From Candidatus Poribacteria bacterium (GTDB lineage: Bacteria; Poribacteria; WGA-4E; WGA-3G), in contig OZ243938.1 in the NCBI GenBank assembly GCA_965214095.1, positions 4,352,001 to 4,416,000 of the forward strand: a DNA stretch of 64,000 bases. Direction: 5' to 3'. Under the pieces are notes generated by a model. That model ran no database searches and was not told where the DNA came from. It saw only the letters and a list, made by a program, of their open reading frames with translations. Both the position numbers and the translations under genes were made by a program. Position 1 is the first letter of the stretch. Every line of letters begins with the position of its first letter. Below are positions 1 to 64,000 of the stretch, in pieces.

Positions 1-2079
1 GGTAAAAGCATCACTAGTGCCGGTAATTCTGTTGTTGTTTGGAATGTTAAGAATGGCGAAAGAGTTACATCCTTTTCAAAACATACTGGTTGGGTTATGG
101 AGGCAGCATTTTCCGCAGATGGAACAACCATCGTCAGCGGAGGACTTGAAGATGGAACACTCTATGTCAATGAAATAGAAAAATCAAAATTATCAATAGG
201 TGATCCGAATACCGTCCGCTTAATCTACTTTCTGCCAAGTGACCTTTCACCACAACCAGATATAGACAAAAAGTTAGACAAATTAATTAAAAACGTTCAG
301 AACGTTTACGCTTCACAGATGGAATACCATGGATTCGGTAGAAAGACCTTTAAGATTGAAACTAACTCCACCGGTAAAGTTGTAGTACATCACGTGAAGG
401 GGCAATACAAGGATGCATATTATCAGAAGGAGTCAAGTAAAATTTGGGACGAAATTGATAAGCGATTTGACGTTTATAACAACATCTATCTGGCTGCTTT
501 AGATAGTAGTTCTGATGTCCTTGATGGTTTCGCATCTGGGTTTGGTATACCAACTGGTGATTTTGGTGGCAAAGTTGTAATTCCTGCTTCTAGTTCCAGT
601 TCTTATGATACGGCAGTGACCGTTCACGAACTTGGACATGCATTTGGTTTAGTACATGACTATCGCAATAATTTGAAGACATGGGTAGATGAGTTTATAA
701 ATGAACCTATGACAACATCTCTCTGTGCAGCACAATGGTTGGATGTACATCATTATTTTAACACAAGAGAATATGGTAAAAATCTACTTACGACCATTAA
801 GGCGGTATCTGCAAATCGCATAGAGAAAACTAATTCAGTCCGCTTTATATTTGATATAACTGATCTTGATGGACTGCATCAAGCACAATTCTTAATACCA
901 GAATCTCATGAATCACCATTTCAAAAATTGCATGATTTTAAAGTCTTGAATGGTCAGAAAGACACAGTCGAATTTATCACCACACAATTGACACCTAATA
1001 CTAAATCTATAACGATTCAAATCATTGATAAAATCGGGTTTTACACTAAGAAAAAGTTTACAATTAGGACGAATTCTCTACTGCCTTCACCCAAAGTTGT
1101 GTCCATACCGGATGTCAAATTAGCCGCTGCCGTTCGTACAGCATTAAACCTACCCCATGGAAAACGAATCACACAGTTGGATATGCTAAACTTGTATGGA
1201 CTCAATCCTAATGGAGATTTTGATGTTAGCAATCATCAGATTACCAACCTTACTGGAATTGAACATGCAACGAATCTAACAAGTTTGAATCTCAGTATGA
1301 ATGAGATTAACAACATACATCGGCTTGTACAATTGAAGAACTTGCGTGTTTTGAAGATCGATAATAATCAAATCAGGAACATAAAACCACTCATAAAAAT
1401 GACAAACTTAAAAGAAGTATCGCTAAGAGGGAACCCAATTGAAGATGTCTCACCTATTCGTACCTTACTTAAGGAAAAGCCTGATATTCACCATGATATT
1501 TGGCATCTCATCTACGATGTTGAAAAAATTACTGGTCCTTGGCTTTGGATGTTTGCCCCAACAAGTGAAGGAGAAGGCGGTGCAAGCTCCATTGACGTTG
1601 ATTCACTTTCCACCTTGAGCAAAGGAGTTGTCACTGAAGATATTGTTTCAAGAAAAGGAGCCAGAGTACGCGGTTTTGTTGGTAAACGTTCTTGGATTCA
1701 GGAAAGAATCACGGACGACAACGACGATAATATCAACAAACTTGTGAATAGAAAACGTATAATAGATACAAGTAACCCAAAACATAAATACTACTCAAAG
1801 TATACTAAAGATTATACTGCATACGCCCTTATCACACTTAAGTCTGCCTCTGCTCAATCTGATGTATTGATGTTCGTTGGCAGTGATGATGCTATTAAAG
1901 TGTGGTTAAACGGTAATGTGGTGTACAAAAATGCTATCAATCAAGGAGCAAAAGACTTTCAAAATAGTTTCAAAGTAGATTTAAATGCAGGTAATAATCT
2001 ATTATTGGTTAAGGTCAGCCAGAGTGGTTATAAATGGAGTATGTTTGTAGGTATTAATGCAGATGTAACCACTAAATAA
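1..2079 (+). CDS. Modular protein, 5'-partial: WD40 repeats + zinc metallopeptidase (HELGHAFGLVH) + LRR + C-terminal beta-sandwich domain
   Basis: Frame open from base 1 (GKSITSAGNSVVVWNV...HTGWV, WD40-like); HExxHxxGxxH motif; internalin-like LRRs; C-terminal GSDDAIKVWLNG domain. Confidence 0.8.
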   Translation, partial: GKSITSAGNSVVVWNVKNGERVTSFSKHTGWVMEAAFSADGTTIVSGGLEDGTLYVNEIEKSKLSIGDPNTVRLIYFLPSDLSPQPDIDKKLDKLIKNVQNVYASQMEYHGFGRKTFKIETNSTGKVVVHHVKGQYKDAYYQKESSKIWDEIDKRFDVYNNIYLAALDSSSDVLDGFASGFGIPTGDFGGKVVIPASSSSSYDTAVTVHELGHAFGLVHDYRNNLKTWVDEFINEPMTTSLCAAQWLDVHHYFNTREYGKNLLTTIKAVSANRIEKTNSVRFIFDITDLDGLHQAQFLIPESHESPFQKLHDFKVLNGQKDTVEFITTQLTPNTKSITIQIIDKIGFYTKKKFTIRTNSLLPSPKVVSIPDVKLAAAVRTALNLPHGKRITQLDMLNLYGLNPNGDFDVSNHQITNLTGIEHATNLTSLNLSMNEINNIHRLVQLKNLRVLKIDNNQIRNIKPLIKMTNLKEVSLRGNPIEDVSPIRTLLKEKPDIHHDIWHLIYDVEKITGPWLWMFAPTSEGEGGASSIDVDSLSTLSKGVVTEDIVSRKGARVRGFVGKRSWIQERITDDNDDNINKLVNRKRIIDTSNPKHKYYSKYTKDYTAYALITLKSASAQSDVLMFVGSDDAIKVWLNGNVVYKNAINQGAKDFQNSFKVDLNAGNNLLLVKVSQSGYKWSMFVGINADVTTK

Positions 2080-57962: not shown

Positions 57963-59153
57963 ATGTCAAAACTTAATATTGCACTCATCGGTGCTGGCAG
58001 ACGTGGTGGTGGTTCTCACCTACCTGTCATTGCAAAACTCAAAGATGTCTACAATTTGGTTGCAATTTGCGACATTGAAGAAGAAACCGCAACACGATAT
58101 GCAGAACAATACGGTGCCAATCCTTATACTAACGTCCGAGATTTAGTCACACAGGAAGACCTTGATGTCGTTGACATAACGGTGCCAGGTGTTGCACACC
58201 ATTCCATTGCTTGTTTTATGGCAGATGCAGGTGTCCATATCTTGTGCGAAACCCCGATTGCGGTTACACTCCCAACATCAGATATGATGATTGAAAGTGC
58301 AAAAGCAAATAATGTAAAACTTGAGGTAGCAGAAAACTACTACCGCGCCCCGCGCGAACGATTTCTATCCAAAGTCATTGAAGCAGATGTGATTGGTGAA
58401 GTAGCACGTATATACCGAATTTTTCATGAAGGTGGTTGTCATGGGATGAGTATGCTGCGCCTGCGTGCTGGCGGTAAACCAAAATCTGCTCTCGGTGTTA
58501 CTCAATCAACTCCCATTATCCCTATAATTGATAGAATGAAACGTGACCACAGCAGTGAAAGATGGAGTCTCGGGTTTATTGAATTTGATAATAACGCAAC
58601 TGCTCTGATGGTCTACTCCAATGTCATCCATGCACGTTCACTTGGTCGCGGACAATCAGGTATCTCTCAGATTGATGGTAGTAAAGGAACAATCGTTGGA
58701 GACGAAATCTATGTCACACCTGCTGCTGACCTGCAATCTGGGGCAAAGGGTATTGCACATAGAGCCAAACGCACAACTATTGACGTTGATGGCGTTGATG
58801 TCATTGAAAAGATCGAGCTTGAATTACCAGAACAGACGGTGACATGGGAAAACCCTCTCAAGCACTACCCTCTTTCTGAAGGACAAATCGCTGTTGCTGA
58901 TGAACTCCTTAGTATTGCGAATGCTGTCAACAATGATACCGATCCTGAATACGGAGCAGCACTTGCAAGACAAGACCAAGAGATGAACATTGCGATGAAT
59001 GAATCTGGCAAACGCAGCCGTGAGACTTTACTGTTCCCATTGACTGAGTTAACCGAAACGGAACGTGGTACTAATGACAATTATCAGAAACAGTATGGAC
59101 ATCCTATAGAAGACGTTGAAGCTGGGATTGATACCTTCTTTCCGCGTCGCTGA
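57963..59153 (+). CDS. Gfo/Idh/MocA oxidoreductase
   Basis: IALIGAGRRG, ICD, HILCETP, ENY. Confidence 0.88.
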   Translation: MSKLNIALIGAGRRGGGSHLPVIAKLKDVYNLVAICDIEEETATRYAEQYGANPYTNVRDLVTQEDLDVVDITVPGVAHHSIACFMADAGVHILCETPIAVTLPTSDMMIESAKANNVKLEVAENYYRAPRERFLSKVIEADVIGEVARIYRIFHEGGCHGMSMLRLRAGGKPKSALGVTQSTPIIPIIDRMKRDHSSERWSLGFIEFDNNATALMVYSNVIHARSLGRGQSGISQIDGSKGTIVGDEIYVTPAADLQSGAKGIAHRAKRTTIDVDGVDVIEKIELELPEQTVTWENPLKHYPLSEGQIAVADELLSIANAVNNDTDPEYGAALARQDQEMNIAMNESGKRSRETLLFPLTELTETERGTNDNYQKQYGHPIEDVEAGIDTFFPRR

Positions 59154-59198: not shown

Positions 59199-60272
59199 TC
59201 AACGACTCAATGGGTGTTCCCGATTAACAATCGGAAATTGCACGCGTTGTCCTGTGAGTTGAGATTCGTAAGCACCTAAGATCATCTCCAATGCTGCGAC
59301 TGCATCCTCTGCAGCGGAAATCGGTTTGCGATCATTCTCTATTGCATCAATCAGATCCAGTATAGCGAGTTCGTTTCCTTTGGAGAATGGGGTATCATCC
59401 AGATCAATCGCTTCCCATGCCTGATCAGGATTTGAAGGCACTAAAACTGGATACGGATAAACCATCAGTCTGTTTGCAACATCTCCACGAAGAGAAAAAA
59501 TACCGTCGCTACCTACAATCTCCATACCGTATCTGCCTGAACCGGCTTGGTCTTTACGTGACTGGAAGAAACCTGTGACACCACTCTTGAAAGCAAAGTA
59601 ACTATTTATACAATCCCCTGCTACCGGTCCGACAGGTTCAGTGGGTTCATGATGACCACCAGAAACTACCTCTTGACCATCTTTCAAGACGTGTGCCTGC
59701 ATCCAATCAACATCTCCTACATAGAAACGCATCATATTGAACAAGTGTGTGCCAAGGACAATCATATCCTCTCCACCCCCACGTCTGTCCTGTTTTCCAC
59801 TGGCATAAATTGCTTGCACAGTGCCAATTTTACCTTCATGGAGCAACTGCCTGATTGTATGTGTTGCAGGTAGATAAACCGCTTGATGCGCAACCGCAAC
59901 CTTTCCTCCGTTTGTCTTTGCACTCTCAACGATCTTATCACCCTCTTCAAGCGATCCTGTCATCGGCTTTTCGCTGTAGACGCTGCATCCAGCTTCAAGA
60001 CATGCAGTTACCATATCAACGTGCTCAGTCACCCATCGCGGACCGACACTTACAATGTCTAAATCCTCTTTTTCTAACATGTCACGATAATCAGTGTAGC
60101 TGCGTAGCGCACCAGATTCTTCAACTGCTTTTTTTCTTCCTGCTTCATCTAGGTCAGAGATAGCGATAAATTCAACATTATCTATGTTATTATATGCTGT
60201 ATGCAGTCCGTGTCCGAAGTTGCCTGCTCCAGTATGTCCGATAGCTGCAGCACGATAGATCTTTTCACTCAT
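59199..60272 (-). CDS. Gfo/Idh/MocA oxidoreductase
   Basis: IGHTGAGNFGHG, YSEKP, LGTH. Confidence 0.88.
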   Translation of the reverse strand: MSEKIYRAAAIGHTGAGNFGHGLHTAYNNIDNVEFIAISDLDEAGRKKAVEESGALRSYTDYRDMLEKEDLDIVSVGPRWVTEHVDMVTACLEAGCSVYSEKPMTGSLEEGDKIVESAKTNGGKVAVAHQAVYLPATHTIRQLLHEGKIGTVQAIYASGKQDRRGGGEDMIVLGTHLFNMMRFYVGDVDWMQAHVLKDGQEVVSGGHHEPTEPVGPVAGDCINSYFAFKSGVTGFFQSRKDQAGSGRYGMEIVGSDGIFSLRGDVANRLMVYPYPVLVPSNPDQAWEAIDLDDTPFSKGNELAILDLIDAIENDRKPISAAEDAVAALEMILGAYESQLTGQRVQFPIVNREHPLSR

Positions 60273-60424: not shown

Positions 60425-61117
60425 CTATAAATTTGCAAACGATTTCACCCTATGCACGAGATCAGAATAATAGCATAGTCGTGCATAATATCTCATGACT
60501 CTATCAACATATTCAAGTGTCTCAGGATAACCTTGAAAATATCCGTGCGGTGGTTCCCCAGCCTCCCACACATTGCTATGCAATACCTTATCTTTTTCTG
60601 TAAGAAGGACAAGATTTCTGCTGAGACACACCCATTGATTTGGATTATCATGTCTGTGTGCAGTAATCTGTTGGGCATCCTTGATGTGTCCACGACCTCC
60701 ATTATAACTTGCCAATGCAATCCGAACACGATTCGGATGTGAACTGTCAGGATACAGGTCGTATAAACTACGGAAATAACGTGTCGCGCCAGCAATACTC
60801 TCATTAGCGTTGAATGGGTCAGTGACACCAAGTTCTTTCGCTGTCTTTGGCATCAGCTGCATCAAACCCATCGCACCTGCATGACTCTCCGCATTCTCGT
60901 CAAACCCAGATTCTTGCACAATCAGTGCAGTAATGAGCCGCCAATCCAAGTGATGCATAGCAGCATGTTCTTGTATCACCGGACGATATTTCAATATTTT
61001 GGGTGTAAGTACAAGTATCCGTACGCCGTTCCAATCACGGACAAATACGACAAATCCAACGATTAGAACTGCACACAAAATGAGTCTTATGAGAATGCGT
61101 TTTGTTATCTTCAGCAT
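60425..61117 (-). CDS. Lytic transglycosylase (SLT/MltF-like)
   Basis: QESGF, GAMGLMQLMP, ALASYNGG, ETLEYV. Confidence 0.9.
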   Translation of the reverse strand: MLKITKRILIRLILCAVLIVGFVVFVRDWNGVRILVLTPKILKYRPVIQEHAAMHHLDWRLITALIVQESGFDENAESHAGAMGLMQLMPKTAKELGVTDPFNANESIAGATRYFRSLYDLYPDSSHPNRVRIALASYNGGRGHIKDAQQITAHRHDNPNQWVCLSRNLVLLTEKDKVLHSNVWEAGEPPHGYFQGYPETLEYVDRVMRYYARLCYYSDLVHRVKSFANL

Positions 61118-61136: not shown

Positions 61137-62780
61137 TTAGTTTCCCCAAGCATAAGCAATCAAGAAAACAAAACGGTGTTGTTGATCAGTTTCATCCTCA
61201 ACGTGATCTCTGTTTTGAATATGCCGCCAAGCGTAGTTGATAGAACCTTTAACCCCCTTAATCGGTCTATATTTCCAACCAAGTCGAAATTCAGTAAGCC
61301 GTTCAACAACCCCTGATGGAAAAGGTATGTTCTCAAAATCTTCACCGTAAAACCGATCAGTAATATCTGCTTCACCGTTTCGTTGATGGCTAAAGCTTCC
61401 CTCAATTATTGCAGAAGGTGTTGCATGATAAGACACACGAAACGTGAGTAAATCTGCATCCGTGCCTATCGGATGTCCAATCACTGTGCCGAAGTGCGTG
61501 AACTGATTATCAGGTTCCAGATGTGTATATGTCCACCGATTGACACGCACATATTCTCCGAGGAAACCGAGTTGTCGGTCTGCAAACTTTGGATACCACT
61601 CCACACCAGTAAGCCATGTTACCGCATGCGGGTCATTAGAATCAGATTGATACTGAAAATCATCTGCCAGCCATTCTGCATATAGACGTACACCATCAAT
61701 TGGTCGCACTGCGCCATCAAAACTCAACATCATGTTGTCATCATTCTCGGCATTATATTGCACTGCATAATACGGAATTATAGGATTGAGGTAATGCCAT
61801 CTTACTGACTCCACATCTCCGCCATACAGCACCCATTCCGATACACCTATTTCAAGCCAATCACTAAATTGATAGTCCACCCGATGCGCGCTAAGATAGC
61901 GTTTCGCAAGGTAACGTGTCGTGCCATCGTCAAACCATGTTGAATTTAGTTGTGCTGAAAACGCAGTTGCTTTGAGTGTGCCGATTCTACAAGGAATTGT
62001 TCCAGTGAGACGGACAAGTTCAAACGGAGGTGAGTTATCAGATATACCTACAGACTTGATAGGACTTGCTCCCCAATAAACATAATCTCTTCCAAAGAGA
62101 AGATTTAAACTTGCCTCATTAGAAAATGATAGATTATATTGAAGATAACTCCGTTTGAAGTCAACAACATAATCCCAGTGCCATCGTTCATACCGTTGGT
62201 CAGCAGATTTCAAAAGGGGAGGTGAATCTGGTAGATAATAGTTATCTAAAAAATCTTGACCTTGTTCAAAATTGGATATTTCCAATTCAGAATATATGTT
62301 CAATCTGTGACTATCTTTACCAATACCAAAATGCAGTCCACTTTGAAGAGCAGGTGCAATTTCCTCATTCGCAACACGCATTTCCGGTTGGATATTAACA
62401 TAAGTTCTTTGTAGCACGGAATTTTGTGCATCTTGTAGGTTCAATTGTGCTAACGCATTGTGGAATTCTCGTTTGAGTTTCTCAAGGAGTTTTCTGTCTA
62501 TGTCAGATATAGTGAAAGCACCTGATTGGAAACGTTTTTCTGCAGTTTGGATAATCTTTGCGACATCCTCACGAGATAGCGGCAATGTGTGACGATGAAA
62601 GCCACCTGTAACACCTGATACTTCAAGCTTATTTAACGTGTCAATCACCCAACCGTCAAAGTTATTCGGAATATTTGGAGTAGCGTATACTGATAGCGAA
62701 ACAGATGAAAAGAATACAAAAATAGAGAAAAGAAGAGTGCTTAATTTCTTATATGTAACTGAGGAATTAGGTGTAATCAT
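61137..62780 (-). CDS. Capsule assembly Wzi-family outer-membrane protein
   Basis: [31 protein letters not shown]; ATG 62780 overlaps the nadE stop. Confidence 0.75.
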
Positions 62781-64000
62781 GCGTCTTGCATCTCCTCGCA
62801 CATCCTATCTATCTTCTTGAATTGCCAACTCCAACGTGTGTTGTATAGAAACTGCCGAAGGTCAAATCGGTTATCTTCTGGAGAATACGGTTCTGCATGA
62901 TATGACGGGGTTAGGGTTGTCATCTTGTGCCGATTAATTGCATAATACCGGAAGAACTTTTTCACTTTTTCAGCCACTTCATCTGGCGGAAGATGATTCC
63001 ATTCCTGAGCAAGTTTTTCAAACATGCTAACAGGTCCACATCGATGCACTTTCCGTAGCTGACCGAAACGACTCAACTCCGCATAAGTCATTCCCATATC
63101 TTCTTCATCAGTTTGAGTGTAGGTTTCAGTAATAGGTTCCAATTCTGCTGTTGGTGGTGCTTCCAATATATCTCCAAGACTGGGATAGCCGAGATTTTCC
63201 TGTGCCCATCTTAGAAAACTACGAAGATCTGTTTTGCTGATACTACCTATCGGATTGATGTCTGCACTGCTGCAATCGTATTTTGTGAGATACCCGCGCA
63301 ATGCTTCGTCAACATTGCCAGTACCTAAGACGAGAAGTGTGCCACGTTTATTGCGAACCCACGGTAAGGTTTGTGCAAAGAGATAACTGATAACCATCCG
63401 TAGACGTGCCTGAATGTTCTGTAATGCTTGATTCTCAACAGTGCTGCCGCCTTCGGTTTTGAACTTAGGGGTTTTGCCAGTGATACCAATGAATAGCTTT
63501 TGCAGTGCGTTTACAAGTGTATCTATATTGATATTTAGATGATAACTGCCGATCTCACTTGCCAACTGCTTTGCACGCTGCCGCGTTTCACGAGAACTGT
63601 TCTCGGTTCCCATATAGCATGTATACAGCAGTTGATCTGCAAGATATTGTGAAGCAAGAAAAGGATCGTCATATTTAGTTTTGATAGTTTCTACACAATC
63701 TTTACCAAGCAATCGTTCAACATCACATATCACGTGTTGTGCATCAGACAGAATCGATTTTGCAACCAGTTGACACATTGACCCGACAAGTGTTGCAACA
63801 GCCCCGCTATCCGATCCACCTGATAGTGGCACAAAATAGCCTCCAGCTTCAGATCGTCTAAGATAATCCCATAACCAGCAGGCAGGACCAAGTGCAATCT
63901 CCTCTTCAGGTGTATGTATGTTGAGTTCAGTCATCGGAATGGTAACATTACGTTTTTCTCTATCGGTCACCGAGAAATCAACATTTATTTGTGGTATTGA
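62777..64000 (-). CDS. nadE: Glutamine-dependent NAD+ synthetase, eukaryote-like (Qns1/NADSYN1 type), 5'-partial
   Basis: [64 protein letters not shown]; frame open to base 64000. Confidence 0.93.

Follow-up and report, generated by a model that had tools for sequence, protein, structure and literature searches.

A eukaryote-type NAD+ synthetase in an order of Poribacteria and where it may have come from

How did a bacterium come to carry on its own chromosome a nicotinamide adenine dinucleotide (NAD+) synthetase of the type found in humans and yeast? The question is raised by a 64,000-nucleotide stretch from the genome of a Candidatus Poribacteria bacterium (hereafter the window; positions 1-64000 = G000:C1:4352001-4416000), at the far end of which an earlier note, made from the letters of the window alone, had recognized part of a gene resembling eukaryotic NADSYN1/Qns1 rather than bacterial NadE. 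The reading frame of this gene, here called nadE, runs off the end of the window, with its first 296 codons lying beyond; extended past the edge it forms an intact gene with no internal stop (Table 1). We examined its relationships, its distribution across the phylum and its genomic setting, and weigh below the ways in which it could have been acquired.

An NAD+ synthetase of the eukaryotic subtype

In a search against all PDB sequences the protein matched human NADSYN1 (6OFB) with 890.2 bits (E 9.6e-267), residues 3-699 aligning with residues 4-694 of the human enzyme in one unbroken match. The other matches in this search were to an enzyme from Cytophaga (3ILV, 223 bits), to the Mycobacterium tuberculosis enzymes (74-78 bits; 3DLA, 78) and to single-domain NadE (below 45 bits). 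When the 407 residues visible in the window were scanned against NCBIfam, they missed the cut-offs of the NadE equivalogs PRK13980, PRK00768, PRK13981 and PRK02628 (88 versus 255, 62.7 versus 250, 44.5 versus 479 and 26 versus 473) and exceeded that of TIGR00552 (104.4 bits, cut-off 63.65). The best 3 of 30 Atlas clusters were NADSYN clusters dominated by Chordata, Ascomycota and Streptophyta, with scores of 0.98-0.99 and a membership of 82-100% Eukaryota. Every peptide block that the earlier note had quoted as eukaryote-like is present in the translation, and its assignment of type thus holds. Its further impression of an especially plant-like sequence does not: identity to moss and green alga (60.1-60.7%) is no higher than to fungi (60.7-63.0%), Rhizaria (59.0-61.0%) or a protist from MMETSP (63.5%), none of our trees joins the protein to plants, and a plant affinity was rejected on both grounds. 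The protein is by its sequence a member of the eukaryotic subtype, the “branch II” of De Ingeniis et al. 2012, though encoded by a bacterium.

The two-domain architecture is common to the Poribacteria protein, human NADSYN1 and yeast Qns1 (703 versus 707 amino acids), as are a Glu-Lys-Cys triad, an SGGxDS PP-loop and a C-terminal extension. The residues E45 (GPELE), K114 (RPKK) and C175 (ETCEEL), which lie in the CN-hydrolase glutaminase domain encoded beyond the window end, are aligned and identical in the human enzyme; in the Qns1/NADSYN1 family these positions form the catalytic triad, and SGGSDS is the ATP loop. Relatives of the gene likewise have open frames of about 700 codons free of internal stops. 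We propose that the product is a functional NAD+ synthetase of the NADSYN1/Qns1 subtype, full-length and complete with both domains. By comparison with the family, the N-terminal nitrilase-like domain (Glu45-Lys114-Cys175) would hydrolyse glutamine, the ammonia would be channelled internally to the PP-loop domain at the C-terminus (SGGSDS), and the latter would adenylate nicotinic acid adenine dinucleotide with ATP and amidate it to NAD+. The 890-bit collinearity with 6OFB leads us to predict this overall reaction, from nicotinic acid adenine dinucleotide, ATP and glutamine to NAD+, together with an ammonia tunnel and a homo-octameric assembly.

Two kinds of bacterial enzyme serve as points of comparison. 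The nearest genuinely bacterial forms that we obtained (223-241 bits) are those of a Cytophagales/Vibrio type, namely 3ILV, Slin_6745 of the Spirosoma linguale plasmid pSLIN01, and the plasmid-borne nadE of Hymenobacter and Vibrio parahaemolyticus. Like the Poribacteria protein, these fuse a CN-hydrolase to an NAD synthase domain (640-695 amino acids), but they are only 29-31% identical to it and are separated from it by a saturated branch with 100/100 support. Classic NadE, as found in other Poribacteria and in M. tuberculosis (3DLA, 3SEQ), catalyzes the same reaction with the same Pfam domains, but has frames of 544-585 (two-domain) or 267-289 (single-domain) amino acids rather than 703, and scores 200-245 bits against TIGR00552, as opposed to 104 for the window protein. 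In the part of the alignment seen, it also lacks the end of the C-terminal extension, the bacterial NadE outgroups of 544-581 amino acids being gapped over the final ~20 columns of that part.

Unlike NADSYN1 and Qns1, the Poribacteria gene resides on a bacterial chromosome, belongs to a clade of its own and encodes the sole synthetase, beside bacterial NadA, NadC and NadD. Its organization is bacterial: it has no introns, follows the upstream gene after 63 bp and overlaps with its stop the start of the next gene. The possibility of a second nadE had been raised in the earlier note, and none was found in this genome: a search with the PF02540 family returned one strong match, the three weak ones being LarE, GuaA and MnmA. 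Likewise, in 5/5 genomes sampled across the four families of the order described below, the ~700-residue frame alone scored above the TIGR00552 cut-off. The genes for the preceding steps are of bacterial type (NadD, 184.7 bits; NadA, 276.9; NadC, 216.4). By these family searches the eukaryote-type enzyme is the only NAD synthetase of this Poribacteria genome, and is predicted to complete an otherwise bacterial NadA-NadC-NadD route.

Distribution in Poribacteria and beyond

Among the 176 genomes of the phylum that were searched, the full-length type was found in 158 of the 159 that belong to a single order, with identities of 64-100%. By family these are 111/111 in f1, plus the genome of the window itself (G000), 11/11 in f2, 28/29 in f3 and 7/7 in f4; the sole miss is G070, which is 95% complete. 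None of the 17 genomes from other orders and classes had a eukaryote-type gene: in 16 the matches were weak throughout (E 2e-18 to 1e-5), while G047 (73% complete) gave none. All five of these 17 that were examined encode classic NadE, with frames of 267-289 and/or 544-585 amino acids. The restriction of the type to one order, with classic NadE elsewhere in the phylum, indicates that the native enzyme was replaced in that order.

The only named bacterial holders among the matches listed are Poribacteria and metagenome-assembled genomes (MAGs) labelled Chloroflexi or Chloroflexota. The latter contribute four proteins, P0374, P0375, P0402 and P0405, of which the first two were taken into the tree and there belong to a sub-clade of 26 rows nested among the Poribacteria sequences. 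As P0374 shares no more than 77% identity with any of the order's 159 genomes, it is not a relabelled representative. A second bacterial lineage, represented by these MAGs, probably received the gene in turn; the copies may reflect spread between co-resident symbiont bacteria, or mis-binning.

Some variants were observed in passing. In G089-G091 (genus g9) and several genomes of g13 (for example G174:C1:4416157-4417296) the match is split in two (E ~1e-165 to 1e-193), the listed piece covering residues ~312-700 inside open frames of 719-788 amino acids, which suggests an insertion or a rearranged interdomain linker. NADSYN-type proteins of 770-892 amino acids (P0123 and P0272-P0275) are encoded on metagenome contigs of 13-78 kb and cluster with Plasmodiophora (95/94); P0123 and P0275, the two of them viewed in the alignment, have Ser/Pro-rich insertions. 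P0021 from Lupinus angustifolius (1201 amino acids) scores like two NADSYN copies, for which either a tandem duplication or the merging of gene models may account.

Phylogenetic position and origin of the gene

A FastTree survey of 305 of the 375 stored proteins (600-900 amino acids) placed all bacterial-labelled rows in one clade of 186 rows (0.96), sister to P0360 (0.96) and among named eukaryotes. An early rooting on P0184, P0189-P0191, P0267 and P0271 was dropped, these sequences being of the eukaryotic type (318-552 bits to 6OFB versus 109-173 to 3ILV). As all 150 listed representatives proved to be of that type by the PDB yardsticks, genuine bacterial outgroups were adopted, first the two-domain NadE of other Poribacteria classes and later the Spirosoma, Hymenobacter and Vibrio plasmid nadE. 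Neither outgroup polarises the tree.

In a 45-row tree under LG+C20+F+G4 with posterior mean site frequencies (PMSF), the bacterial clade was recovered with a support of 92 in the Shimodaira-Hasegawa-like approximate likelihood ratio test (SH-aLRT). It was sister (83) to EukProt416 plus the pair P0360 and EukProt398, five nodes deep among eukaryotic rows, with the saturated outgroup branch joining the longest rows. A placement as sister to this protist group or to P0360 was obtained in three trees (83, 87 and 0.96). An N-terminus shorter by one residue, MKL(V/T)TLAT, is found in 7/10 bacterial rows, P0360 and EukProt398. Without the long-branch rows P0267, P0190, P0189, P0184, P0134, P0140, P0147, P0136, P0126 and P0132, a 35-row tree gave supports (ultrafast bootstrap, UFBoot/SH-aLRT) of 95/91 for the bacterial clade, 93/97 for Opisthokonta, 96/90 for the stramenopile-alveolate-Rhizaria group (SAR), 94/93 for plants and 80/98 for the EukProt group. 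With either bacterial outgroup the bacterial clade stood on the eukaryotic side of the saturated 100/100 branch, and quick trees united it with Opisthokonta and the EukProt group (SH-aLRT 93 with either outgroup). A nesting within a broad bacterial clade, which the earlier note had named as a refutation, was not observed: the sequences form a clade of their own apart from bacterial NadE. Its mean identity to the eukaryotic groups is 57-64%, and to Spirosoma ~31%. As to individual rows, kin of P0190 are on contigs of ~2.3-7 kb, and P0267 has only generic eukaryotic Atlas clusters.

The earlier note had offered two explanations, a eukaryote-to-bacterium transfer and a bacterial sister clade of the eukaryotic enzyme; both stand, and phylogeny does not separate them. 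Of these we favour, with a probability of roughly 0.55, one ancient transfer from a eukaryote that displaced the native nadE. On this view the ancestor shared by a single Poribacteria order would have received the gene, in one event, from an early eukaryote that was not an animal host; the gene would have displaced the native bacterial one and thereafter been inherited vertically while evolving slowly. We prefer this direction because the gene had to enter the order in any case, because no other bacterial source appears among the named matches listed, and because a long branch separating it from bacterial NadE is unremarkable for a eukaryotic stem that predates the last eukaryotic common ancestor (LECA), failing which an unseen bacterial lineage is needed. 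The bacterial copies are one old clade, with an internal divergence, to 64% identity, nearly as deep as the distance to eukaryotes; hence the event would predate the diversification of the order.

A number of points weigh against this transfer. Its direction is a matter that we infer, and the backbone of the 35-row tree is a five-way polytomy (UFBoot <80) of bacteria, Opisthokonta, plants, SAR and the protist group. A topology with monophyletic Eukaryota and the bacterial clade outside was not rejected by the approximately unbiased (AU) test: it costs 15.4 log-likelihood units (lnL) with 45 rows (p-AU 0.133), 1.93 with 35 rows (p-AU 0.254) and 0.64 with the closer outgroup (p-AU 0.396). Rooting is unreliable: the branch to either outgroup is saturated and attaches to the longest rows of the ingroup, and the tool issued warnings. 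Five of the six eukaryotic groups (fungi, plants, Rhizaria, stramenopiles and the EukProt group) have a higher mean identity to the bacterial clade than to any other group, animals being the exception; fungi, for instance, are 63.7% identical to it and at most 62.0% to any other group. The bacterial sequences thus occupy the middle of the eukaryotic star, a pattern that is also expected of a slow-evolving sister to all eukaryotes. In the part seen of the 35-row alignment, 12 regions yielded no clean shared derived indel. Many tree rows, moreover, come without a taxon name (P0360, P0123-P0128, the EukProt transcripts and several deep rows), and the protist sister group is known solely as EukProt transcripts.

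Several of these results would suit a different history, in which the clade of the Poribacteria order is a bacterial sister lineage lying outside all eukaryotic NADSYN1/Qns1. The order would then represent the bacterial donor to the pre-LECA eukaryotic stem, or have obtained the gene from that donor, and would have kept a near-ancestral sequence. We regard this as the main alternative, though less probable than transfer from a eukaryote. It is consistent with the unrejected topology, the star-like 35-row tree and the short branches of a clade closest to five of six eukaryotic groups. It also accords with the conclusion of De Ingeniis et al. 2012 (PMC3376133, section 16) that the eukaryotic branch is descended from a bacterial two-domain branch. 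Intermediate-looking sequences also exist, in 3ILV and the Spirosoma, Hymenobacter and Vibrio plasmid nadE, which have the scores given above at ~30% identity, versus 78 bits for the M. tuberculosis type. However, the type is confined to one order while other orders and classes have classic NadE, so that the order must either have taken up the gene or have arrived at it by extreme acceleration on its stem. Near-zero stems would moreover be required on both sides of the split, maximum-likelihood trees with both outgroups root away from the bacterial clade, and no further bacterial phylum is named among the listed matches save the Chloroflexota-labelled proteins nested in Poribacteria. It is possible, though less likely than not, that the Poribacteria-order clade is the closest living bacterial relative, and a slow-evolving sister, of the NAD+ synthetase gene of LECA.

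A recent transfer from an animal host, sponge or coral, to its symbiont is very improbable. Records of related loci are titled like sponge and coral MAGs, one low-share sequencing run is labelled sponge metagenome, and host-symbiont intimacy would favour such an exchange. Yet uniting the bacterial clade with the animal rows, a group named post hoc and without sponge among its rows, costs 18.3 lnL (p-AU 0.010), animals are the least similar of the groups (mean 57.2%), and the deep divergence among the bacterial copies puts the event before the order diversified.

The ancient eukaryotic transfer that we favour would have a counterpart within the phylum. Thomes and Lescure 2020 (PMC7883664) report, in the passages bearing on this point, that an archaeal pantoate kinase and phosphopantothenate synthetase occur only in sponge-associated Poribacteria (Entoporibacteria), with free-living Poribacteria retaining the bacterial version; the split of the phylum into sponge-associated and free-living members is likewise described in the relevant part of PMC8546597. 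Both cases concern the interdomain replacement of a cofactor-pathway enzyme, but in the former the donor is Archaea and the pathway that of coenzyme A (CoA), and NAD is not mentioned in those passages. Record titles suggest that the order comprising f1-f4 corresponds to the Entoporibacteria. A more distant parallel is provided by the eukaryote-type tubulins BtubA/B of Prosthecobacter, for which transfer versus a deep sister relationship has long been debated. There, too, a eukaryotic protein type of LECA-wide distribution occurs in a single narrow bacterial group; those proteins, however, are cytoskeletal and were added, whereas here a core metabolic enzyme replaced the native one.

The enzyme family, its subtype and the database name are already known, the closest database proteins bearing the name NAD(+) synthase, Candidatus Poribacteria; the evolutionary position and the order-wide replacement are unreported in the literature searched. 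That literature held no prior report of a eukaryote-type NAD synthetase in Poribacteria; the supplements of De Ingeniis et al. (Table S3, Figures S1 and S4), which were outside the search, might list bacteria within the eukaryotic branch of that paper. It is rare for an essential, single-copy cofactor enzyme to be replaced across domains and for the replacement to become fixed throughout a bacterial order. Were the donor indeed a eukaryote, this would rank among the deepest transfers of core metabolic genes from eukaryotes to bacteria and, following the archaeal CoA enzymes, would be the second case in Poribacteria of an interdomain swap in cofactor synthesis. If instead the order carries a sister of the eukaryotic enzyme, it would point to the bacterial source of the universal eukaryotic NAD synthetase. 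The bacterial sequences are nearer to each eukaryotic supergroup than most supergroups are to one another and, being also slow-evolving and intron-free, should help to root the family and, as they are easily expressed, could take the place of the human or yeast enzyme in experiments. NadE has been pursued as an antibacterial target because the bacterial and human enzymes differ; a bacterium that carries the human type calls for caution in this regard.

Gene neighbourhood and authenticity of the locus

Table 1. Coordinates of nadE, its domains and motifs, and the adjoining genes. Positions are those of the window unless a locus or contig is named; domain positions were computed from the gene start at 64888.
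Feature	Coordinates	Strand	Remarks
Eukaryote-type (NADSYN1/Qns1-like) glutamine-dependent NAD+ synthetase, last 407 codons and TGA stop	62777..64000	-	Open reading frame (ORF) open at window end
Complete nadE, 703 codons	L001 2278..4389 (-) = G000:C1:4414780-4416888; start at window coordinate 64888	-	Extended past window edge
CN_hydrolase (PF00795), glutaminase, nitrilase-like	Residues 7-282, outside window, in L001	-	Pfam 126.6 bits
NAD_synthase (PF02540), PP-loop ATP pyrophosphatase	Residues 338-608, 63065..63877	-	Pfam 101.7-104.3 bits
PP-loop motif SGGSDS (ATP binding)	Residues 356-361, 63806..63823	-	Aligns with SGGVDS of human enzyme
C-terminal extension, typical of eukaryotic subtype	Residues 609-703, 62780..63064	-	Aligns to human residue 694
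ATGA overlap of nadE TGA stop with ATG of Wzi-like gene	62777..62780	-	GAC GCA TGA; ATG ATT ACA CCT = MITPNS
Wzi-like, capsule assembly, outer-membrane	61137..62801	-	PF14052 Caps_assemb_Wzi, 84 bits; directly downstream of nadE
SLT-domain lytic transglycosylase, third gene of string	60425..61117	-	PF01464, 88 bits; MltF-like 147.8 bits, below cut-off
Upstream gene, 437 amino acids	L006 3673..4986 = G000:C1:4416952-4418265	-	63 bp from nadE, beyond window

The setting of the gene agrees with what the earlier note had described. Its overlap with a Wzi-like gene, followed by a lytic transglycosylase, was confirmed by the sequence and by Pfam matches, and points to possible translational coupling of nadE with the Wzi-like gene. 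The composition of nadE is like that of its neighbours (GC 0.42-0.43 versus 0.39-0.46 in adjoining sliding windows). Among 89 related loci compared, the Wzi-like gene is present in 74, the SLT gene in 58 (many loci end earlier) and the upstream gene in 71. The order is absent at 15: L027, which ends just past nadE, L081-L086 and L088-L095. Of 160 related loci in species-representative genomes, the best 80 come from MAGs of Poribacteria or of an “uncultured bacterium”, and many of these MAGs are chromosomes in a single contig. Logan contigs from two runs, which may be the source sample, cross 4402 bp including the junctions with 0 differences. Although the genome is a MAG of 4 contigs, 94.5% complete with 1.2% contamination, eukaryotic contamination and a chimeric join, the latter considered in the earlier note, are excluded for practical purposes, as nadE is found 4.41 Mb along a contig of 4.42 Mb or more, amid bacterial genes, one of which it overlaps, in an arrangement shared by the above loci including single-contig chromosomes, with a composition like that of its neighbours and contigs from two runs without difference, in an order in which all genomes but one have the gene.

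At the loci L081-L086 and L088-L095, of ~68-69% identity, no Wzi-like, SLT or upstream gene was found within 3 kb of nadE. The absence of the string from this family indicates that the arrangement in the window is specific to family f1. The Wzi-like gene probably starts at the ATG at 62780, although an in-frame GTG 21 nt upstream (62801), at which the listed ORF begins, is possible. Scans of the upstream 437-residue protein against Pfam and NCBIfam gave no family match; its last 161 residues are 78-98% identical in 71/89 related loci, a conservation exceeding that of NadE.

A run of another study labelled as RNA (a metatranscriptome, X22) contains two contigs of 90-95% likeness, at L001 2285..5001 and 603..1715. 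One of them (3284 nt) extends over nadE into the upstream gene, which is no proof of transcription; it ends 7 nt inside the nadE stop, followed by adapter-like letters. The uncovered parts in runs X5 and X22 carry no information. Beyond the SLT gene are two ORFs, 57963..59153 (+; 396 amino acids) and 59199..60272 (-; 357 amino acids). The latter stands beside the SLT gene in 1/89 loci only, with one more weak match (25%) elsewhere. Both have a Rossmann-like GxGxxG at the start and, judged by eye, look like oxidoreductases of the Gfo/Idh/MocA type.

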